DNA from: Lysobacterales bacterium | GTDB taxonomy: Bacteria > Pseudomonadota > Gammaproteobacteria > Xanthomonadales > SZUA-5 | Reading direction: 5' to 3' | DNA: 64,000 bases | Assembly: GCA_022844165.1 (NCBI GenBank) | Contig: JALHMH010000015.1 | Coordinates: 26,263 to 90,262 of the forward strand | Shown: in pieces, positions 1 through 15,106 of the stretch | Numbering within the stretch: position 1 is the first letter of the stretch | Layout: the number at the start of each line of letters is the position of its first letter | The notes under the pieces: generated by a model | Databases searched by the model: none | Told to the model about the DNA's origin: nothing | What the model saw: only the letters and a program-made list of their open reading frames with translations | Position numbers and translations under genes: made by a program

Positions 1-708
1 GGTGCGCCGCTGCTCACGTTGCCAGCCATCAACGGGCAGCGCGTCGCGTGGTACGTGGGCGCGGTTGCGCAGAACGCCTTTTCCGCTACGTCGTTCTTGC
101 CGATTCGCACCGAACGCAATCCGAACTTCGTGGAGTATTTCGCTGGCGATGCCAATGGTCTGAGAATCACCGAGTGGATGTACGCTGGCGCCGCCGGCGA
201 ATTTATCGAACTGACGAACCTCTCCGATGCCGCCATCGATACAGCCGGTTACAGCATTGATGACAGCAATGCGACGGCCGGTACCTTTCCCATTGGTGCC
301 TTTGGTGTCGTTGCGCCCGGCGAATCGGTGATCATTACGGAAGCCGACGCCAGCGCATTCCGCACTGCCTGGAACCTGCCTGCCGGTGTCAAGATCATCG
401 GTGGGCTTGGAAGCGTAGGCTCGGGAGGAAACAACCTCGGCCGCAACGATCAGATTCACCTGTACAACGGCAGCAATGCGCTGATCGACCGGCTGTTTTT
501 TGGCGACCAGACCTTCAGCGGCACCATTCGCACTCAGAACCGAAGCGGTCAAACACAGTGCGCCAATGTCGGCCAGAACAATGTGACGTTGTGGGTGTTG
601 TCGACGGCTGGCGATGTCTTCGGTTCGGTCACTGCGTCCGGCGGAGATGTTGGCTCGCCCGGTATTTATCTGGCTTCGTGCGGACTGTTCGCGAATGGAT
701 TCGAGTAA
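1..708 (+). CDS. Secreted lamin-tail-domain (LTD)-like protein, 5'-partial, ending in LFANGFE
   Basis: Frame 1 has no stop from nt 1, so the ORF probably continues upstream. 'ITEWMYAGAAGEFIELTNLS' and 'NDQIHLYN' resemble the LTD signature. It ends ...CGLFANGFE-TAA. Confidence 0.6.
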   Translation, partial: GAPLLTLPAINGQRVAWYVGAVAQNAFSATSFLPIRTERNPNFVEYFAGDANGLRITEWMYAGAAGEFIELTNLSDAAIDTAGYSIDDSNATAGTFPIGAFGVVAPGESVIITEADASAFRTAWNLPAGVKIIGGLGSVGSGGNNLGRNDQIHLYNGSNALIDRLFFGDQTFSGTIRTQNRSGQTQCANVGQNNVTLWVLSTAGDVFGSVTASGGDVGSPGIYLASCGLFANGFE

Positions 709-7302: not shown

Positions 7303-8118
7303 ATGAACATCAGACCCCTGCCCGACGCGGCATTCACGCGTCAAGCACTGGCGCGAGATCGCCGTCGCCTTGAGACCGCCTTTTTTTGGGGGGCGATCAG
7401 CATCGCGCTGTTGTGGCTGGTGATGCTTGCCGAGTGGGCTGCTGGAACACGATTCTCGTTTCTCGGACTGGCCCCGCGCGAACTGACGGGGCTTGTCGGT
7501 TTGATCGGCGCTCCGTTGGTGCACGGCTCACTTGAGCACCTGATCGCCAATAGCATTCCAACTTTCGTCCTCATCAGCCTCGGTATGTATGCCGTGCCGC
7601 TGGCGACTGCGCGCGCAGTGCCGTTGATCTGGATCGTCAGCGGCGCTTTGGTCTGGCTGTTTGCCCGCGACTCGGTGCATATCGGCGCTTCCGGTGTGAC
7701 CCACGGTCTGATGAGTTTTCTGTTTGTGCTCGGTGCAGTCCGGCGCGATCGGATCACCATCGCCGTCGCGCTGATCGTGTTTTTTCTTTATGGCAGCATG
7801 GCCTACGGCTTCTTACCCACGAAAGCTGGAATCAGTTTCGAATATCACGGCGCCGGTCTGGTCGGTGGCGTCATCGCCGCGCTGCTTTGGCGAAATCTCG
7901 ATCCGCTGCCAGAACAAAAACGCTATGACTGGGAAGACGAACCTGAAAACGACGAGGAGTGGAACGACGATCCGCTCGAACCCCCGTCGCCGCAACATGT
8001 GCCGGTGCTTTGGGACGGGCCGCGTCGTCCCACGCGCGGTGCCTTGCTGCAATTTCCGTCGCGACGCCGAGTCGAGTTTGCCGATGACGAAGATGGTCGA
8101 ATCGAGCCGGAGCGCTGA
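7303..8118 (+). CDS. Rhomboid family intramembrane serine protease with acidic C-terminal tail
   Basis: Multi-TM protein. 'HGSLEHLIANS', 'HIGASGVTHGLM' (GxSG) and 'YHGAGLVGGV' match rhomboid catalytic Ser/His contexts. Confidence 0.85.
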   Translation: MNIRPLPDAAFTRQALARDRRRLETAFFWGAISIALLWLVMLAEWAAGTRFSFLGLAPRELTGLVGLIGAPLVHGSLEHLIANSIPTFVLISLGMYAVPLATARAVPLIWIVSGALVWLFARDSVHIGASGVTHGLMSFLFVLGAVRRDRITIAVALIVFFLYGSMAYGFLPTKAGISFEYHGAGLVGGVIAALLWRNLDPLPEQKRYDWEDEPENDEEWNDDPLEPPSPQHVPVLWDGPRRPTRGALLQFPSRRRVEFADDEDGRIEPER

Positions 8119-8699: not shown

Positions 8700-9554
8700 A
8701 TGTCCCATCGAACGATGATCGCGGTCTGGGTCGCGTGCAGTTCCTTCTGCTCGTCGGAAGCAGGCGCACAATCGCTGAGCAGCCCCGAGAGCCTGCAATT
8801 CGATAGCGCCAATCAGCGCTATCTCATCAGCAATCGCGGTGCCGGGAACATCCTGGCGCGCAGCACAGAAGGCACACTGACGGTGTTCACCGATGACCCT
8901 TCGAGCCCCGCAGGCATGGAGATCATGCAAGGCGCGGTGTACGTTGCCGATGGCGCCCGTGTGCGCGGATATCGACTGAGCGATGCCGTGCGTGTGCTCG
9001 ATTTTCCGATCCCCGGGGCAGGTTTCCTCAATGGTCTGGCGTCGAATGGCAACGGTATCTTGTGGGTGACCGATTTCAGCCAACGCCGCTTGCACGCGCT
9101 GGATGTTTCGAACTTGAGCGCGCCGGTTTTGAACACGCTGCTGACCGACACCGTCTTCACGCCCAATGGCGTGGTTTGGGATGGCGCAGAAAATCGTCTG
9201 TTGTTGGTCAGCTGGGGCGCCAACGCGCGAATCGCCGAATACCGTTTCGCCGATCAGATGCTCAACACAATCGTGACCACAACGCTCGGCAACTTCGATG
9301 GCATCGTGCTCGGCTGCGACAACGCTGTCTACGTTTCGAGCTGGTCCCCCAGCGGCACGATACGCAGGCTGGCATCGCCTTTGACCGTTGCCTCGCCAGC
9401 CCTGGACTTTGTCATGGGTCTGAGCAACCCTGCCGATATTGCCTTCAGCCCGGAGCGTAGCGAGATCGCAAGCCCGAACGCGGGCAACAACTCCGTCAGT
9501 TTTCATCCCATCGTGTGCCCAACCGAGCCACTGTTTGCGAACGGTTTCGAGTAA
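8700..9554 (+). CDS. Secreted beta-propeller-like protein (SMP-30/gluconolactonase/NHL-like), ending in LFANGFE
   Basis: The ATG at 8700 gives a signal peptide, 'MSHRTMIAVWVACSSFCSSEAGAQS'. Repeated blade-like segments ('GNILAR...', 'GILWVTD', 'PNGVVWD', 'DGIVLG'). It ends PLFANGFE-TAA. The fold call is tentative. Confidence 0.6.
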   Translation: MSHRTMIAVWVACSSFCSSEAGAQSLSSPESLQFDSANQRYLISNRGAGNILARSTEGTLTVFTDDPSSPAGMEIMQGAVYVADGARVRGYRLSDAVRVLDFPIPGAGFLNGLASNGNGILWVTDFSQRRLHALDVSNLSAPVLNTLLTDTVFTPNGVVWDGAENRLLLVSWGANARIAEYRFADQMLNTIVTTTLGNFDGIVLGCDNAVYVSSWSPSGTIRRLASPLTVASPALDFVMGLSNPADIAFSPERSEIASPNAGNNSVSFHPIVCPTEPLFANGFE

Positions 9555-10089
9555 CTTCCGGCCTCGCGAGGCATACCTCTGAATCATGCCCGTCAACGGG
9601 TCAGGGTTCATCTCGATAGTTGACGAACAACGTAGGAAGAGAGGTTGACACAGAGGGAGGCACCACAACGACGCCGAATACGTGTCCGAGAACCGAACCG
9701 CTGAAATCGCAGGAAGAAGTCGATCGAAACGCTGGAACGACGCAGAAGCACGACCGAGGAAGTAACGCGGGACCCGGATCTCGATCATCGAGACGGGGCG
9801 GTGTTGACCCAAGTCCAAGTAGTAGGATCAAAAACTAGAAGCAGATCAGGTGTTGACAGGAGGCGTCCATACGTGTCCTCGTTATGTTGTTCACCGACTA
9901 GGCGCACCTAGAGATTTTCGATGGATGAACTGCAATGAGTCCCGAATTAAGCGCTTTTTACAAACAGCTTCGGATATACCGTAAAATCAAATTCGCAGCC
10001 GTTATCGCGACGGATCGCCCTGTCGAGAAAAAACATCATGGACCAAAGCGCAGCCTGCCCGCCTTGATTCCGTAACATCTTTGGCGCAT

Positions 10090-10566
10090 TTAGTCTATTA
10101 GCTGCACATCGGCCAAGGAAAGCGCTGAAATAATACGCTCGGCTTTAGTGCGACAATTGGAGTTGCACGTCTTCGAGAGCGAACTCAATGCCCTTATTAT
10201 CCGAAGCTTGACTCCGCGCAGCTGTTCCACTTCCGATTCTGAATCTGTGGTTAAAAGCAACGCTCCCGCGTCGCTTACCCATGCATCAAAGTCACTCTCG
10301 TGCCTTTCGAACCAGACAAGCATCATCTCCGGCCGGCATTCTAGCGCTCGACCAAGGTGATCTGATACCTCAAAGCCAAGCGCACCATCTCTAATCAACC
10401 AAAGACTACCAATCGTATGAATGACTGGAATCGCGTCACTTTCTCTTTCGCCGCAAAGTAGTTTTTCTGCATTGGTGTCCAGCCACAATAAACTCTCCGA
10501 TGCGAAATCGCGCGACCAAGCGGTTGATTGAAGAAAGAAACTAACGGCAATCAAAAGCCTACTCAC
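10090..10566 (-). CDS. Putative periplasmic immunity protein for the upstream toxin-like ORF
   Basis: Its GTG start overlaps the toxin stop (GTGA). It has a signal-peptide-like 'MSRLLIAVSFFLQSTAWS'. The sequence is AT-rich and I recognise no family, so the role is inferred from context. Confidence 0.45.
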   Translation of the reverse strand: MSRLLIAVSFFLQSTAWSRDFASESLLWLDTNAEKLLCGERESDAIPVIHTIGSLWLIRDGALGFEVSDHLGRALECRPEMMLVWFERHESDFDAWVSDAGALLLTTDSESEVEQLRGVKLRIIRALSSLSKTCNSNCRTKAERIISALSLADVQLID

Positions 10567-11336
10567 TCAAACCCTCCATCGAAACGCTCTGATATAATAA
10601 TCCTTGCAGTCATTTGCTGCCGAATGGAATTATATAAGGCTTTGGTTGCTGCACGACTGTTATAAACTCTGTTGGAGCGATATTCGCTTCCAGGCATTAA
10701 GCAACCAAGTGTATGCGCCGGTGTATTCCCAGAATGAATGAGGATTTTCGACCTGCCGGGCACTCGTTGCAATTCAAATGCCGACGGATACGCGCGGCTT
10801 GAGTACGGCATGAGCTCATATGATCCGGGCATTATTCTTAGGTCACTACCTTCGATTGTAGAACTTGGTCCAGCGGGCTCCAAAACAAATGCGCTGTTGA
10901 AGTTTCCGTAAAGATCTTCCCAATATATTTCGCTGATCGTAGCTTCGTTCGTTGTGAGAAATCTAAATAATTTTATCTCAAGTTCGGTTGGCAAGAAATC
11001 TTCGACTGCGTCGGAGCCATACGGATCCGGAGGAGGAGCACCTGGCCCATTCGCCGGTCGATGCCATTCATCATTAAACGCCCTAGAAAACGCCGCCGTG
11101 ACTGCCCCATTGGCGAACTTCCCACCGCTCGCCGCGCTGACCGATCCGCCTACGAGAGCGGCGGCGATGACTCGGCTGGGGCTGAATCTGCGGTTCGCCG
11201 CGTCCAGCGTGTCGATTTTTCCTGAGAACGCTTGTGTCACGCCTGCGGACAGGAAGCCATGGCCAAATTTTCCGCCCTGCAAAGTCTGCATCACGCCACC
11301 CGCAATGCCATGCGCAGCCACTTTGGCCGCGAACAA
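10563..11336 (-). CDS. Orphan polymorphic-toxin-like C-terminal module (Gly-rich pre-toxin segment plus DUF5675/YkuD-like domain)
   Basis: 'GGKFGHGFLSAG...GGKFANGAVTAAFSRAF' resembles the pre-toxin region of CdiA/FhaB/Rhs-type toxins. The C-terminal 'ILIHSGNTPAHTLGCLMPG' resembles the DUF5675/L,D-transpeptidase-like His...Gly-Cys motif (from memory). GC drops near nt 11060. The start is uncertain: TTG at 11336, with the first ATG at 11291. Confidence 0.55.
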   Translation of the reverse strand: MFAAKVAAHGIAGGVMQTLQGGKFGHGFLSAGVTQAFSGKIDTLDAANRRFSPSRVIAAALVGGSVSAASGGKFANGAVTAAFSRAFNDEWHRPANGPGAPPPDPYGSDAVEDFLPTELEIKLFRFLTTNEATISEIYWEDLYGNFNSAFVLEPAGPSSTIEGSDLRIMPGSYELMPYSSRAYPSAFELQRVPGRSKILIHSGNTPAHTLGCLMPGSEYRSNRVYNSRAATKALYNSIRQQMTARIIISERFDGGFE

Positions 11337-11666
11337 GCCGGGACTCAGGTCCGTGCGCTATAGCGCGACCCACAAGAGCGACGTGTCCCGTTGGTCGCGC
11401 CATGCGACGCTGTTGTCTGGAATGCTGCGGTGAAGTCGCCCACTGGATGGGCTGCCTTCCTGCTGTGGGGGGCGCGATAACTTCGACAGTCGATGGTGAA
11501 TCTGGCGGGCTGACCCGCAACGGCTTTGACATAGTTTCTCCGATCAAAGCCGCTCTGAAATGAGAGATAACTCAAAGTATAACTGGCAGGTCGCATTGAT
11601 TTGAAGATGCACGCACCCTGGACCGACCAGGGCGCGCGGTGTCTTTTGGCCTGGATGACCGTTCGA

Positions 11667-14600
11667 TCATTCAAATCCGTTCGCGAACAGTCCATCGTCT
11701 GCGCCCGCCGCGATCACGCACCATTGATTAACGGTGCCGCTGTCGCCGGTGGCATCGTCAATGACGGTCAGACGGAAGTCGCCGGCGGGCAGGCCATTGA
11801 ATCGTGCCAGATCGTCTTGCGGACGCAATTCGCCGTTGATGGCTGGTGCGGTGGTGCGACAGGCGACGATTGCGCTGTCATCGTCGTTGAAGGTGCCGTT
11901 GACATCATCGCCGGTGCAATTGTTTTGTTTGGTGTACAGCCGTGCTTCTACGCCGCTGGCGACGTGCGTGAGACGGAATGCCAACTGTCCAGCGCTGGTG
12001 TGTGCGGTATTAATGCTGACATCCAGATCGCCGATCAGCGAGCCAGGTACGGTCAGTGTCTGCGTGGCACCGCTGGCGTTGCCATCGGGAATCGGCAGGG
12101 CGCTCTGCGAACAAATGGCGGCGGCCGTTGTGAAGCTGCGCATGGTGCTGGCGGCAGACTCGCCGCAGGCGTTGATTGCGGTCACGCGCCAAAAGCGGGT
12201 GACGGCCGGCGCCAGTTGTGGCAAGCGGAACTGCGTCGCGATGGTCTCGAAGCTCTGAGTGTTCGGTCCGGCTGCAAAAGCACTGCTGTCGGATACGTCC
12301 ACGCGATAACGCAACGCGCCCGTCGCGGCCTGCCAGGACAGCTGTGGCGCGCGTTTGACGCCTGTCTGACTATCGCCCGGGCTGCCCAGCAATGGCGCAG
12401 CTGAGGTGCTGCTCGATACCCATAGTGGCAGCGCCAGTTCGTCGTCCGTACCGCCGCTCACGTCAGCGCGAACAGTGGTTGGATACGCACCGGGGACCAG
12501 TCCTGCCTGCGGTGTCAATGTCAGCGTGCTGCTGCCGGTGTTGATCGAGGCGGGCGCAAAGGCCACGCCGAGGCCGCTCGGTGCGCCGTCCAAACTGAGC
12601 GCAGCGTTGCCGGCAAAACCGGCGAAACTGCCGAAACTCAGGTTGGTCTGCGTCGGCGTTGCGCCGCAGACATTGATCGTTGTTGCCGGGGAAGTGATCG
12701 CCACACCCGCCTCGCGACAGTTGGTGCACACCAATGCGTAATCTTGCGCGGGTGTTCCGGGCGTGCCGTTGCCCGCGAGTGCATCGGCGTTGATCGCCGC
12801 GGCCGTCAATGTGATCGTTGTGGCGCCGCCGGCGGGCGCTGCCAGATAGACATTTTCAATGTTGTTCAGCCGATCGAAGCTGCCGCCGGTTACCGACGTG
12901 CCGTTGTTGAAGACGTTGCCAAAGTACGTCTGGCCACCGTTCACCACGGTCAGGTCCAGATCGTTCACGAGGGCCGGATTGGCCTGCACCGCGCCAGGCG
13001 CATCGGTCCACACCAGCGAGATCTTCATGGGTCTGCCGGGATCGACCAACCCGACCGTAAAGCTTCGCGTTTGTCCGGTGGCTGTGAGTACATCGTCCTG
13101 ATCGCGATACACGCCGCGCAAGCTCGGATCGAAGGTGTACTTCAGGTCGACCTGACCCCAGCCCTCGTCGTTATTCGGTATCGGTCGCGAGCCGTCGTTG
13201 GCGTTTGGTGTGCCGGTGCCGGCCAGATCGTAGGCACCATTGATCAGTACCGCTTTGGTCATGGCTGGAGACGGAACGGCACCGGCGAATTTTTTGGCCC
13301 ACCATTCGTGCACCAGAGCTGCCGCGCCGGAGACCATGGGCGTGGACATGCTGGTGCCGGAGCACAGCGAGAACAGGCCGTTGGTGCCGGCGATTGCCGT
13401 TCCGCATTGGCCACCTTCAGCGCGACGTGTTGAACCGGTATTGCCGCCAACGCCAGTGATCGTGGGGAGGGTCCGACCATCTTCTGCGGGTCCTCGCGAC
13501 GACGAGGAACTGATGTTGCTGGAGCTGGCGGGGTTGGTGCGCCCGACTAACGAATTGGCTACGGAGATGATGTTTTTCGCCACGTGGGGGCCGGTGAGGG
13601 TCGATACGCCGGGTCCAGCGTTTCCAGCTGAAAACAAGATCGAAAAAGCTTGGTTACCGGTGGTGTTGAAATCGCCGTCGCGAACCAGAGTGTCGTATTC
13701 ACGCTCGCTGGCAAGGTAACGCACTTGCGGCGAACTGCCCGAGTTGTTCCAGGAATTATTTGATCCGCGCGAACCCGCCGCCAATGGAATGCGCGTGCGC
13801 TCGGGGTTGGGCATGCCACCGCAACCCACCGATCGAACCGCAAAGAGCCCCGCCGCCGGAGCGACGCCTTGACCATATCGGTAACCGTTGGCATCGGTTT
13901 CCGCCGCGGGCCCGGAGAAGTCTCCAGTACCGCGACCCGCCAGCGATCCCGAGACATGCGAGCCATGCCCACCGCTGTCGTCGCCCGGCAACGGGGCCGT
14001 GGGGCAGCCTGGGCCGTCGTGACCGCCCACCCGCGCCACCCCCAAATCCGGATGCTCCCAATCGGTACCAGAATCGACCACCGCCCAGGTGATGCCTGCG
14101 CCGCTCAAGCCCAGATCCCACGGCACGCCGATGGTCTTCAGGAAATCAAGATATCCCGGTGCGTTGCCGATTCCGCTGGGCGAGAAGTTGCGCGCGAAGA
14201 CCTGGTTGGCCATTTCATCGTCGGGCTGCGCCTCCGATTCGCGACCAACCCAAACCAACTCCGGGAGCTGTGAAACAGCCGCTAGAGCGCCGGCGTCGAT
14301 GCGACCTGACGCGCGATAGAAGCGGGCGTCCGGCTGGGCTGGGTAAAACTGTTTGAGTGACACGCCGCGCGCGGCTAGCGTGCCCTGCAGCGTTGTCGGT
14401 GAGCCAGAGTTGAACAACAGAAAGCTTGCGTCTTCAATCGGCCCATTGCTGCTGCGCAAGTTCGGATCGATTCGCAGGTCGCCGCCGAAGGCTGCTGCGC
14501 CGCGAATCATCGGTTGACCGTCCAGCGCAGCGATGGATGCCCCGTCGGCCCAGACGAGATAGGCGTTGTGCGGATAGTACTGAAGCGGCAATACCTCGGC

Positions 14601-14954
14601 AGATTCCAGGGCCTGCGTCCAGGCGGCGCGCGCCGGGCCATCGAATTGCACCAGAAACAACCCTTGTGCGGCGGATTTGTCAGCGAGGCGCGGTGCGGTC
14701 ATGGGCACTTGAACAGAACCAACTCGCACATCGTCGCCAGCGATCTCGACAATGATCCCGCGACTACGAAGTTTGGCGATCGCGGCTGGTTCCAGCCGCG
14801 CCCAGGAAAAGCCTCCGTGGTCTTCGACTCGTTCGACGTACTCGCCCAGCGTGGCGATCGTTTCGGGTGAGGCATGGACACGCACGGCGATCGGGTCGGC
14901 AAGAGCGGCTTGCGCAAGAATGGCGCCGAGCGAAATGACGGTGAGACGATTCAT
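11667..14954 (-). CDS. Large secreted subtilisin-family (S8) serine protease with proprotein-convertase P-domain, ending in LFANGFE
   Basis: Catalytic triad contexts 'VVDSGTDWEHPDL', 'GGHGSHVSGSLAG' and 'SGTSMSTPMVSGAAALV'. P-domain-like 'IPDGNASGATQTLTVPGSLIGDLDVSINTAHTSAGQLAFRLTH'. The ATG at 14954 gives signal peptide 'MNRLTVISLGAILAQAALA'. Confidence 0.9.
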   Translation of the reverse strand: MNRLTVISLGAILAQAALADPIAVRVHASPETIATLGEYVERVEDHGGFSWARLEPAAIAKLRSRGIIVEIAGDDVRVGSVQVPMTAPRLADKSAAQGLFLVQFDGPARAAWTQALESAEVLPLQYYPHNAYLVWADGASIAALDGQPMIRGAAAFGGDLRIDPNLRSSNGPIEDASFLLFNSGSPTTLQGTLAARGVSLKQFYPAQPDARFYRASGRIDAGALAAVSQLPELVWVGRESEAQPDDEMANQVFARNFSPSGIGNAPGYLDFLKTIGVPWDLGLSGAGITWAVVDSGTDWEHPDLGVARVGGHDGPGCPTAPLPGDDSGGHGSHVSGSLAGRGTGDFSGPAAETDANGYRYGQGVAPAAGLFAVRSVGCGGMPNPERTRIPLAAGSRGSNNSWNNSGSSPQVRYLASEREYDTLVRDGDFNTTGNQAFSILFSAGNAGPGVSTLTGPHVAKNIISVANSLVGRTNPASSSNISSSSSRGPAEDGRTLPTITGVGGNTGSTRRAEGGQCGTAIAGTNGLFSLCSGTSMSTPMVSGAAALVHEWWAKKFAGAVPSPAMTKAVLINGAYDLAGTGTPNANDGSRPIPNNDEGWGQVDLKYTFDPSLRGVYRDQDDVLTATGQTRSFTVGLVDPGRPMKISLVWTDAPGAVQANPALVNDLDLTVVNGGQTYFGNVFNNGTSVTGGSFDRLNNIENVYLAAPAGGATTITLTAAAINADALAGNGTPGTPAQDYALVCTNCREAGVAITSPATTINVCGATPTQTNLSFGSFAGFAGNAALSLDGAPSGLGVAFAPASINTGSSTLTLTPQAGLVPGAYPTTVRADVSGGTDDELALPLWVSSSTSAAPLLGSPGDSQTGVKRAPQLSWQAATGALRYRVDVSDSSAFAAGPNTQSFETIATQFRLPQLAPAVTRFWRVTAINACGESAASTMRSFTTAAAICSQSALPIPDGNASGATQTLTVPGSLIGDLDVSINTAHTSAGQLAFRLTHVASGVEARLYTKQNNCTGDDVNGTFNDDDSAIVACRTTAPAINGELRPQDDLARFNGLPAGDFRLTVIDDATGDSGTVNQWCVIAAGADDGLFANGFE

Positions 14955-15106
14955 TGGAGTTTCCCTGGGAACGGTCGAAACAAGAGAGTGCTCGCGGCGT
15001 CGAAGTTGCGCCAGGAACTTCTTTGGCTGGGCGCGAGCGACCGGTAGAGTGCCAGGGGCAGCCATCGGACGGCAAGTGCCGTTGCAGCAAGCTCGCTTAC
15101 GCAGCG

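Follow-up and report, generated by a model that had tools for sequence, protein, structure and literature searches.

Three protein-coding genes in the analysed stretch of Lysobacterales DNA (64,000 nucleotides, hereafter the window) encode unrelated domains and end in the same seven amino acids, LFANGFE, followed directly by a stop codon. Gene A is cut by the window start and represented by its 3' part (1..708, + strand), which encodes an LTD-like domain (PF00932, 2e-14) ending in GGDVGSPGIYLASCG, then the first copy of the tag (ctgttcgcgaatggattcgag, 685..705, + strand) and a TAA codon at 706-708. A full-length homologue of this gene (L024:2650-4884, 745 aa) carries a choice-of-anchor X domain and has the C-terminus LCELFADGFE, again followed by the stop. 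Gene B (8700..9554, + strand) encodes a 284-aa secreted six-bladed beta-propeller of the NHL/SGL type, which is 100% identical to P0001 and matches the PknD-sensor and Pizza propellers in the PDB. Its predicted Sec signal peptide (MSHRTMIAVWVACSSFCSSEAGA, 8700..8768, + strand) was read from the sequence, with the inferred cleavage site preceding QS, and in the alignment of gene B homologues a conserved AQ-LSGPES block begins directly after the signal peptide. The second copy of the tag (ctgtttgcgaacggtttcgag, 9531..9551, + strand) closes the gene, with TAA at 9552-9554.

Gene C lies on the opposite strand (11667..14957, - strand) and encodes a 1095-aa secreted S8 subtilase (PF00082, 3.7e-27; P0130, 100% identical), the C-terminal part of which consists of Ig-like and P-domain-like domains before the third copy of the tag (ctgttcgcgaacggatttgaa, 11670..11690, - strand; TGA at 11667-11669). 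It too has a predicted Sec signal peptide (MNRLTVISLGAILAQAALA, 14901..14957, - strand), read in the same way and with an inferred cleavage site before DP. Orthologues of gene C at 38-78% identity retain the tail, and the closest identified relative is the Lysobacterales MAG GCA_022844135.1, with a subtilase 78% identical to gene C. An earlier note on this DNA had described three unrelated ORFs with LFANGFE-stop C-termini, called them LTD-like, beta-propeller-like and subtilase proteins, and pointed to differing codons and to signal peptides on the two N-terminally complete proteins. The tags are indeed present at all three positions, the domain calls agree, the three 21-mers vary at synonymous sites, and both B and C begin with Sec-type signal peptides as read from the sequence.

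Within the window the motif is both rare and precisely placed. A degenerate scan of both strands of the 64 kb for F-x-[D/N]-G-F-E returned exactly the three tag sites, against 0.03 expected from shuffles, and none of 100 shuffles reached three. No internal copy was found with a looser protein regular expression in all six frames of the window, and no transmembrane, basic or hydrophobic segment lies in frame past the stops of the three tags, which are of two kinds (TAA twice, TGA once). Read-through into a hidden transmembrane segment was rejected on that account. The tagged genes are three among 69 ORFs chosen by a heuristic. All three window copies have a cysteine 2-11 residues upstream of the tag, a feature that is not general among tags. 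A further C-terminus, RFDGGFE-stop, had been put forward as a related tail; its position was right (10566-10586, at the end of a DUF5675 toxin-like ORF), but the kinship was not. This tail has an extra glycine, its ORF belongs to a cassette with a GC content of 45-52%, against 60-64% in the flanks, and it was judged unrelated and rejected as a fourth copy.

Beyond the window the motif proves degenerate, with the core [LIVM]-[FY]-x-[DN]-G-[FL]-E lying 0-3 residues before the stop and preceded by a short, non-conserved and often acidic linker. The bare heptapeptide at a free end, as the tail was originally described, holds for the window copies, which end at the glutamate, but elsewhere one to three extra residues are common (P, TP, SP, AQ, TR) and one form has a 12-residue extension. 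The tail ends observed include E, EP, ETP, ESP and ...VP. Terminal specificity was tested by a genome scan for LFANGFE with no requirement for a stop. In Lysobacterales-type MAGs, all 38 sites among the matches listed fall in long ORFs, 15 of them exactly terminal and 10 with 1-3 extra residues; in most other phyla the matches listed fall in short ORFs and look like chance. An unbiased count is given by non-seed variants of the motif in the same loci, seven of which are terminal and none internal in about 160,000 aa. Apart from a few exceptional LFANGFE sites inside proteins or close to the N-terminus (L027, L063, L074, L107), the tail is strongly confined to the C-terminal end. A set of 49 LFANGFE sites is encoded by 28 distinct 21-mers, so that conservation lies at the level of the peptide and is not that of a DNA repeat, as had been proposed.

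The tail is not the mark of a local secretome, as the earlier note had suggested, but is instead lineage-wide in many Lysobacterales. The core [LIVM]-F-x-[D/N]-G-F-E occurs near the stop in more than 200 Lysobacterales proteins, carried by Aquimonas, Tahibacter, Dokdonella, Chiayiivirga, Rudaea and many MAGs, and a longer form of 19 residues, [PLI]F-x-DGFESGDTSxWSxxVP before the stop, is found in Thermoanaerobaculia. Loci of 8 kb often contain two or three tagged genes, and in this sample the tail is present on a few percent of genes in the whole clade; the distribution is thus both lineage-restricted and dense. Among the matches listed from the genome scan there was no named match to Xanthomonas, Stenotrophomonas or Lysobacter, which is only suggestive of these genera being non-carriers. 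The scan of viral contigs gave 0 matches, and a 44-aa tail profile run against a set of 5.8 billion proteins retrieved only 11 candidates.

The proteins that carry the tail are diverse. Forty-two tagged proteins match about 50 Pfam families (FG-GAP, beta-helix, M14, M28, reprolysin, PliI and GSDH among them), extending to many folds the claim that the tail is attached to unrelated domains. The proposed link to export was likewise borne out: by a strict home-made heuristic, signal peptides were scored on 19 of 29 tagged proteins and on 72 of 270 untagged ones (odds ratio 5.2, p = 5.7e-5), and by eye about 25 of the 29 tagged proteins have one. The motif or a close variant stands at the end of about 100 homologues of the propeller and of about 80 out of 120 homologues of the subtilase, and within each of these two families the tail is highly conserved and has a conserved cysteine just upstream. 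The tailed subtilases include 750-aa forms that lack the Ig and P domains, which indicates that the tail tracks the C-terminus whatever domain precedes it. Some family members of the same order have no tail at all, which means that neither folding nor export as such depends on it.

Structure predictions place the tail outside the folded part of the protein. The propeller of gene B is modelled by AlphaFold with a pLDDT of about 98; the final 14 residues of the protein (IVCPTEPLFANGFE) form no structure, and pLDDT drops along them from 74 to 57. In the model of the C-terminal part of gene C the tag (residues 325-331) has a pLDDT below 50 and no secondary structure. The domains before the tag reach 92-98 in the two models and the tag is undocked from them; the tail is accordingly predicted to be flexible, with 7-14 disordered residues past the last folded domain in both B and C.

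What the tail might do is suggested by what stands in its place in relatives. Bacteroidota homologues of the propeller have a T9SS C-terminal domain (CTD, PF18962) where gene B has LFANGFE. Homologues of the LTD domain in other lineages share a domain end GD[IV]GNPG (GDxGNPG) and continue into PEP-CTERM, IPTL-CTERM-like or T9SS-like tails; PEP-CTERM follows right after GDxGNPG in at least 21 of 150 such homologues. Tagged proteins match the NCBIfam models "choice-of-anchor B/J/Q/X", as well as "rhombosortase-dependent M36", "myxosortase-dependent M36", "T9SS-dependent M6-like" and ExeM/NucH. Judging from these homologues, the tail is interchangeable with known sorting tags in the manner implied by "choice of anchor". 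With its many families, C-terminal confinement, signal peptides and interchangeability, it would belong to the generic class of modular C-terminal protein-sorting tags. Since it sits where relatives carry surface-sorting signals, it is probably a sorting or retention tag.

No known system accounts for it. In NCBIfam the tails matched no sorting-signal model, whether whole proteins (E<=1) or the tails alone (E<=10) were scanned, and the tails of the window match no model in either Pfam or NCBIfam, sorting signals included, as the earlier note had anticipated. Searches of the literature by motif string and by concept found no published account of the tail, and Haft's 2023 myxosortase preprint makes no mention of Xanthomonadales or Lysobacter. 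The tail also fits none of LPXTG, PEP-CTERM, GlyGly-CTERM and the T9SS CTD, a point on which the original description stands; having no transmembrane helix, it fails membership of every known sorting-signal family.

The comparison is closest with PEP-CTERM/exosortase and IPTL-CTERM, which are also short modular C-terminal tags, lineage-restricted, numerous in each genome and found on many unrelated proteins with signal peptides; among LTD-domain proteins, PEP-CTERM occupies the very place of the GFE tail, a few residues past GDxGNPG. Unlike PEP-CTERM (TIGR02595) and IPTL-CTERM, however, the GFE tail has no PEP or IPTL signature, transmembrane helix, Arg/Lys cluster or HMM match. The stop directly after the motif leaves no room for a helix or basic cluster, so intramembrane cleavage by an exosortase is not possible. 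Tagged proteins include relatives of ExeM/NucH and of the M36 peptidases that NCBIfam labels rhombosortase-dependent or myxosortase-dependent, but the tag lacks the Gly/Ser-rich motif, invariant cysteine, transmembrane helix and Arg tail of GlyGly-CTERM (rhombosortase) and MYXO-CTERM (myxosortase). It similarly lacks the LPXTG motif, transmembrane helix and basic tail of sortase substrates. The T9SS CTD (Por_Secre_tail) resembles it as a C-terminal signal with no membrane anchor that is recognised after Sec export, but that CTD (PF18962/TIGR04183) is a folded beta-sandwich of about 80 aa and the tag a disordered stretch of 7-9 residues. PF18962 has no match in the window proteins, and no T9SS is known from Gammaproteobacteria.

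Very short unstructured C-terminal peptides read in trans are familiar from KDEL, the PTS1 signal SKL, bacterial PDZ ligands and the beta-signal of outer membrane proteins (YxF-COOH). All of these need a free carboxylate at a fixed distance, whereas the tag tolerates 0-3 or 12 further residues; recognition of a free carboxylate is therefore not essential, and the analogy with signals of the PDZ, KDEL or PTS1 kind is weakened. The beta-signal also requires a terminal aromatic residue on a beta-barrel, whereas the core of the tag ends in glutamate and its passengers are soluble propeller, subtilase and LTD proteins.

We favour, with about even confidence, the reading that LFANGFE represents, in this window, a modular C-terminal tag on Sec-exported proteins, serving as a sorting or retention signal for a putative receptor in trans. 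The earlier note's interpretation is thereby kept in part: the tail is peptide-level, modular, linked to signal peptides, terminal and covered by no known model, but it is neither local nor a bare heptapeptide, and RFDGGFE does not belong to it. The putative role, the compartment and the existence of a receptor are all suggested by comparative anatomy. A passenger would be exported by Sec, lose its signal peptide and fold in the periplasm, leaving the tail exposed and flexible. A shared soluble or outer-membrane receptor would then bind the tail in trans; the surface recognised would comprise the two aromatic residues and what is probably a type I' turn at N-G/D-G. The protein's destination, whether it is sent or retained there by the receptor, would be the cell surface, the outer membrane, vesicles or the medium. 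The tail would thus functionally replace the PEP-CTERM, IPTL-CTERM-like or T9SS C-terminal tails of its relatives. Recognition could not be by an intramembrane enzyme of the sortase type, because the tail has no membrane-spanning segment.

More tentatively, and with a good deal of doubt, the tag may be the cargo mark of an undiscovered Gram-negative envelope sorting or attachment pathway, one that reads an anchor-free peptide of 7-19 residues after Sec, is distinct from sortase-type systems and T9SS, and perhaps works by strand donation to a jelly-roll receptor. To our knowledge, all described prokaryotic C-terminal sorting signals are either tripartite (motif, transmembrane helix and basic tail, cut by a membrane enzyme) or, in the T9SS, folded domains about 80 residues long; to read a disordered seven-residue tail that lacks a membrane segment would take recognition machinery of another kind. 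Such a pathway, if it exists, would give bacteria an equivalent of terminal linear signals like KDEL and PTS1.

Neither a receptor nor a processing enzyme nor a transport gene turned up near the tagged genes, and all-versus-all clustering of ORFs from 48 loci gave no recurrent untagged neighbour except common GGDEF-type and kinase/TPR paralogues. A rhomboid gene (7303-8118) adjoins gene B and was considered as the processing enzyme; it was rejected, since it scores 27.7 bits against the rhombosortase (TIGR03902) cutoff of 84, the tag offers no transmembrane segment as a substrate, and the relatives L121 and L122 do not preserve its synteny. Per-genome tag counts can serve as a phylogenetic profile for finding the machine, and cultured carriers exist in Tahibacter, Dokdonella, Aquimonas, Chiayiivirga and Rudaea. 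The tag would also sharpen annotation of the secretome and surface proteome of Lysobacterales abundant in soil, water and wastewater, and if sufficient for targeting it would make a very small display or secretion tag.

An unlikely alternative, which is a specific mechanistic version of recognition in trans, is that the tail is the orphan first strand (the first two in the long form) of a jelly-roll of the MAM/NTTRR-F1 type, complementing a strand-deficient partner or the edge of a sheet and so tethering or oligomerising proteins at the surface. The long Thermoanaerobaculia form resembles the start of InhA-like MAM domains in the same subtilase family (LFSDDFESGAPGWTSGGT, LLFDDMESGAPGWTHSGT), with hydrophobic-F-x-[DE]-[DG]-F-E-[ST]-G-x-x-x-W in common, of which the short tail shares the first seven residues; the lack of structure of the tail on its own in AlphaFold models is also consistent with a donated strand. 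In the NCBIfam scan one of ten tails, a long one, matched NTTRR-F1 at positions 4-22 of 155 (E = 0.006), but at 16.8 bits against a cutoff of 70; the short tails match neither MAM nor NTTRR-F1, and Pfam gives nothing for tails of either kind. Only the first 7-19 residues of the domain would be represented, with the rest absent, and a donor strand of seven residues would be very short. No partner lacking such a strand was identified, and the likeness could be convergent, both sequences being a beta-strand followed by a turn.

Slightly less probable is a protective end-cap with no sorting role, a compact hairpin with Glu or Pro at its end, which would shield exported C-termini from the cell's own tail-specific proteases and carboxypeptidases. 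Ends of the Glu/Pro kind, such as those of the tails, are attacked poorly by A/B-type metallocarboxypeptidases and by proteases of the Prc type, whose preference is for apolar ends; N-G and D-G, as found in the tail, favour a tight type I' turn. Carriers also encode many secreted peptidases, some of them tagged (M14, M28). However, capping would call for no more than the final one or two residues, leaving unexplained both the near-invariant aromatic pair and glycine over about 50 families and the exact coincidence with the position of the sorting tags of relatives, and AlphaFold predicts no stable hairpin.

It is very improbable that the tail is an intramolecular element, a latch or final strand belonging to the domain before it and kept by each family separately for the sake of folding. 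Its strong conservation within the propeller and subtilase families would agree with this, and the conserved cysteine upstream in those two families could pin the C-terminal segment by a disulfide; but that cysteine is not general, the same heptapeptide follows propeller, LTD, P-domain, MAM, beta-helix and FG-GAP folds, and the tail is undocked and of low pLDDT in both models. There are, moreover, subtilase homologues in which the MAM domain is itself the C-terminus, with no tail behind it. Chance, repetition at the DNA level or an error of annotation, such as an overlooked read-through into a transmembrane segment, has nothing but the shortness of the motif in its favour and a practically negligible probability, being refuted by the shuffles, the diversity of the 21-mers, the two stop codons with no hydrophobic or basic segment beyond them, and the recurrence of the tail in more than 200 independently assembled proteins.

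A six-frame scan of the window confirmed that three ORFs end in L-F-A-N-G-F-E followed immediately by a stop codon, as the earlier note had described. The tag closes gene A, an LTD-like protein (PF00932) of which the 3' part is present (685-705, plus strand, TAA); gene B, a 284-aa six-bladed NHL/SGL beta-propeller (9531-9551, plus strand, TAA); and gene C, a 1095-aa S8 subtilase whose C-terminal domains are Ig-like and P-domain-like (11670-11690, minus strand, TGA). The same note's statements that codons differ between the copies and that both complete proteins carry signal peptides were also borne out: the three 21-mers vary at synonymous positions, and Sec-type N-termini were seen on both. 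Across both strands of the 64 kb, a degenerate DNA pattern for F-x-[D/N]-G-F-E occurs at the three tag sites only; dinucleotide shuffles give an expectation of 0.03 sites, and 0 of 100 shuffles reached three. A looser protein regex found no internal copy in any frame of the window, and the tail is absent from the window's other genes with signal-peptide-like N-termini, which include a SodA-like protein, a lipoprotein, a beta-lactamase-fold protein and a 598-aa protein. Immediately 3' of gene A lies an Fe/Mn superoxide dismutase (PF00081 and PF02777; 709-1587, plus strand) whose N-terminal extension resembles a signal peptide, which suggests an exported enzyme.

One further claim did not hold up, namely that RFDGGFE-stop (10566-10586) is a related copy. 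It has an extra Gly, no signal peptide was seen, and it terminates a DUF5675 toxin-like ORF that also contains a fragment of the DUF637 pre-toxin region and is followed by a small putative immunity ORF. We judge it a chance resemblance to the tag within a toxin/immunity module. This orphan polymorphic-toxin module (9555-11336; minus-strand ORFs 10563-11336 and 10090-10566, with the DUF637 fragment and a DUF5675 C-terminal domain) sits between two tagged genes, has a GC content of 45-52% against 60-64% in its flanks, and was probably acquired horizontally.

The tail is modular, terminal and lineage-restricted. A search for LFANGFE across 185,579 species genomes, whether or not a stop codon followed, returned at least 120 loci. 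Among the matches listed, 38 fall in Lysobacterales-type MAGs (Aquimonas, Chiayiivirga, Rudaea, Pseudolysobacter, Rhodanobacteraceae and others), all 38 in long ORFs; 15 of these are exactly terminal, 10 are followed by 1-3 further residues, and several more lie 4-8 residues before the stop. Another 71 of the matches listed are in other phyla, most of them in short ORFs, and most look like chance. The exceptions among them are four Acidobacteriota loci (Thermoanaerobaculia, Holophagae and one unclassified) and one unclassified bacterium, all with a 19-residue long form, F-x-DGFESGDTSxWSxxVP-stop, whose first seven residues are the Lysobacterales tag. The long form is carried at loci L013, L019, L035, L049, L073 and L094 (Thermoanaerobaculia and other Acidobacteriota) and by the homologous proteins P0180, P0181, P0193, P0195, P0197, P0206, P0214, P0216, P0223, P0226 and P0243.

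To avoid ascertainment bias, terminal position was counted only for variants other than the query within the same 8-kb loci (MFRDGFES, VFADGFEN, LFADGFE, LFSDGFED, VFANGFEP, VFLNGFE, FVRDGFE and VFKQGFE); across long ORFs totalling about 160,000 residues, 7 were terminal and 0 internal. Signal peptides, scored by a strict home-made heuristic, were enriched (19 of 29 tagged against 72 of 270 untagged genes; odds ratio 5.2, p = 5.7e-5), and by eye they are also present in at least six of the ten tagged genes scored negative. The 42 tagged proteins match 50 different Pfam families. The only conserved feature ahead of the core is that position -2 tends to be D, E or G, and the upstream Cys of the window copies is not general among tagged proteins. 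The 49 LFANGFE sites comprise 28 distinct 21-mers, so selection acts on the peptide. A few sites are internal or near the N-terminus (loci L027, L063, L074 and L107). In two such rare cases (L063:3740-5098 and L027:2625-5633), one site lies about 57 residues into the protein, directly after a lipoprotein-like signal peptide, and the other lies in a linker about 30 residues ahead of a MAM-like domain.

Orthologues conserve the tail in a degenerate form. Nearly all of about 100 propeller homologues, mostly metagenomic and including one named Xanthomonadales, terminate in C-x(3-5)-[LVIM]-[FY]-x-[DN]-[GRSD]-[FLM]-E-x(0-2)-stop (for example CATSNIFANGFE, CAGVLFRDGLETR, CAGVLFRDRFE and CEPAVFASDFER). 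Among 120 subtilase homologues, from named sources that include Tahibacter soli, T. aquaticus, Dokdonella, Wenzhouxiangellaceae and Rhodanobacteraceae, orthologues of 38-78% identity end in [LVMIY]F-x-[ND]GFE(P). Subtilases of 750 aa without the Ig and P domains keep the tail (...CTNC-x(3-6)-LF[ER][ND]GFE[AG][QPE]), those whose last domain is InhA-like MAM end in IFADGFDD, IFENGFD or IFKNGFEP, one sub-group ends in F-x-DGFGE, and those of Thermoanaerobaculia carry the 19-residue [PLI]F-x-DGFESG[DN][TL]S-x-WS-x-x-VP. Some homologues stop directly after the MAM domain and have no tail. The tail thus goes with the C-terminus whichever domain precedes it and is dispensable for the fold.

The tail occupies the place where relatives carry known sorting tags. 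Bacteroidota propeller homologues have a T9SS CTD (PF18962) in place of a GFE-type tail. In the LTD-like family, searched exhaustively among 1.84 billion representatives, the domain end GD[IV]GNPG precedes several alternative tails: PEP-CTERM (VPEP, hydrophobic helix, RRR) in at least 21 of 150 homologues; IPTL-CTERM-like tails (IPTVSEWG...), T9SS-like ends or dockerin-like repeats in others; and the GFE tails IFENGFE-stop, VFADGFESP-stop and VFRDGFELPTK-stop. The window protein ends GDVGSPGIYLASCG-LFANGFE-stop. Tagged proteins match the NCBIfam families choice-of-anchor B, J, Q and X, T9SS-dependent M6-like, rhombosortase-dependent and myxosortase-dependent M36, ExeM/NucH and ELWxxDGT repeats. 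Across 611 ORFs from the Lysobacterales loci sampled, tripartite C-terminal tags hardly occur, with 2 doubtful cases.

The tail itself, as first proposed, fits no known sorting signal: no Pfam or NCBIfam sorting-signal model matched whole proteins or isolated tails (E<=10), and no hydrophobic or basic segment lies past the motif in frame. By their defining tests it belongs to no known sorting-signal family, and it behaves like the general class of modular C-terminal sorting tags. A rhomboid-family gene (PF01694; 7303-8118, plus strand) lies directly upstream of gene B; against the rhombosortase model it reaches 27.7 bits, below the cutoff of 84, it is not kept beside propeller orthologues, and it is probably a coincidental neighbour. 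No recurrent gene family adjoining tagged genes was found. Large Ser/Thr kinase/TPR proteins recur in tagged-gene loci (L003, L037, L076, L122 and L124); those of four loci cluster together, L124 has a similar one by Pfam listing, and they probably represent a large paralogous family, not a functional link.

An AlphaFold2 model of the propeller (114-sequence alignment) has a pLDDT of about 98, and its last 14 residues lack secondary structure as pLDDT falls from 74 to 57. The last 331 residues of the subtilase (36 sequences) give a mean of 92.6, with the seven tag residues below 50. The tail is a free peptide in these models, with no predicted packing against the protein that carries it. Such conservation without packing is characteristic of a linear motif that is read in trans. 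In two-residue hairpins, type I' turns favour N-G and D-G, and this would account for the D/N-G core.

With moderate confidence, we read the tail as a modular C-terminal tag recognised in trans that would direct or retain Sec-exported proteins. As to function, compartment and receptor, we infer that it would send the protein to, or hold it at, the surface, outer membrane, vesicles or medium and that, since it lacks a membrane segment, its receptor would be soluble or in the outer membrane. A donor-strand version of recognition in trans is rather unlikely, and a protease-resistant end-cap is unlikely. An intramolecular structural element, set against the unpacked models, is very improbable, and chance or artefact is negligible beside the shuffles. 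Functions beyond these take up the remaining probability. That the tag marks a new pathway is less likely than not but a real possibility. No description of the tail was found in the literature searched, whose incomplete coverage makes this weak evidence of absence.

The sole model match, a weak one, placed one long tail on positions 4-22 of the 155 in NTTRR-F1, with E = 0.006 and 16.8 bits where the cutoff is 70. It agrees with the MAM-like domains inside members of the subtilase family, whose opening, LFSDDFESGAPGWT or LLFDDMESGAPGWT, closely resembles the long tail. The tail may have arisen from the first strand of a MAM/NTTRR-F1-type jelly-roll, or may imitate it. The subtilase homologues P0209, P0220, P0224, P0228, P0234, P0240 and P0247 have another short tail without a TM helix, ...[LV][YF]LP[LI][IV]-x(2-3)-stop (for example TNLLYLPLIVGD and RLVFLPLVLRP); some other hits among the subtilase homologues are named Ardenticatenaceae or Promineifilaceae. 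This ending may be another unrecognised C-terminal tag.
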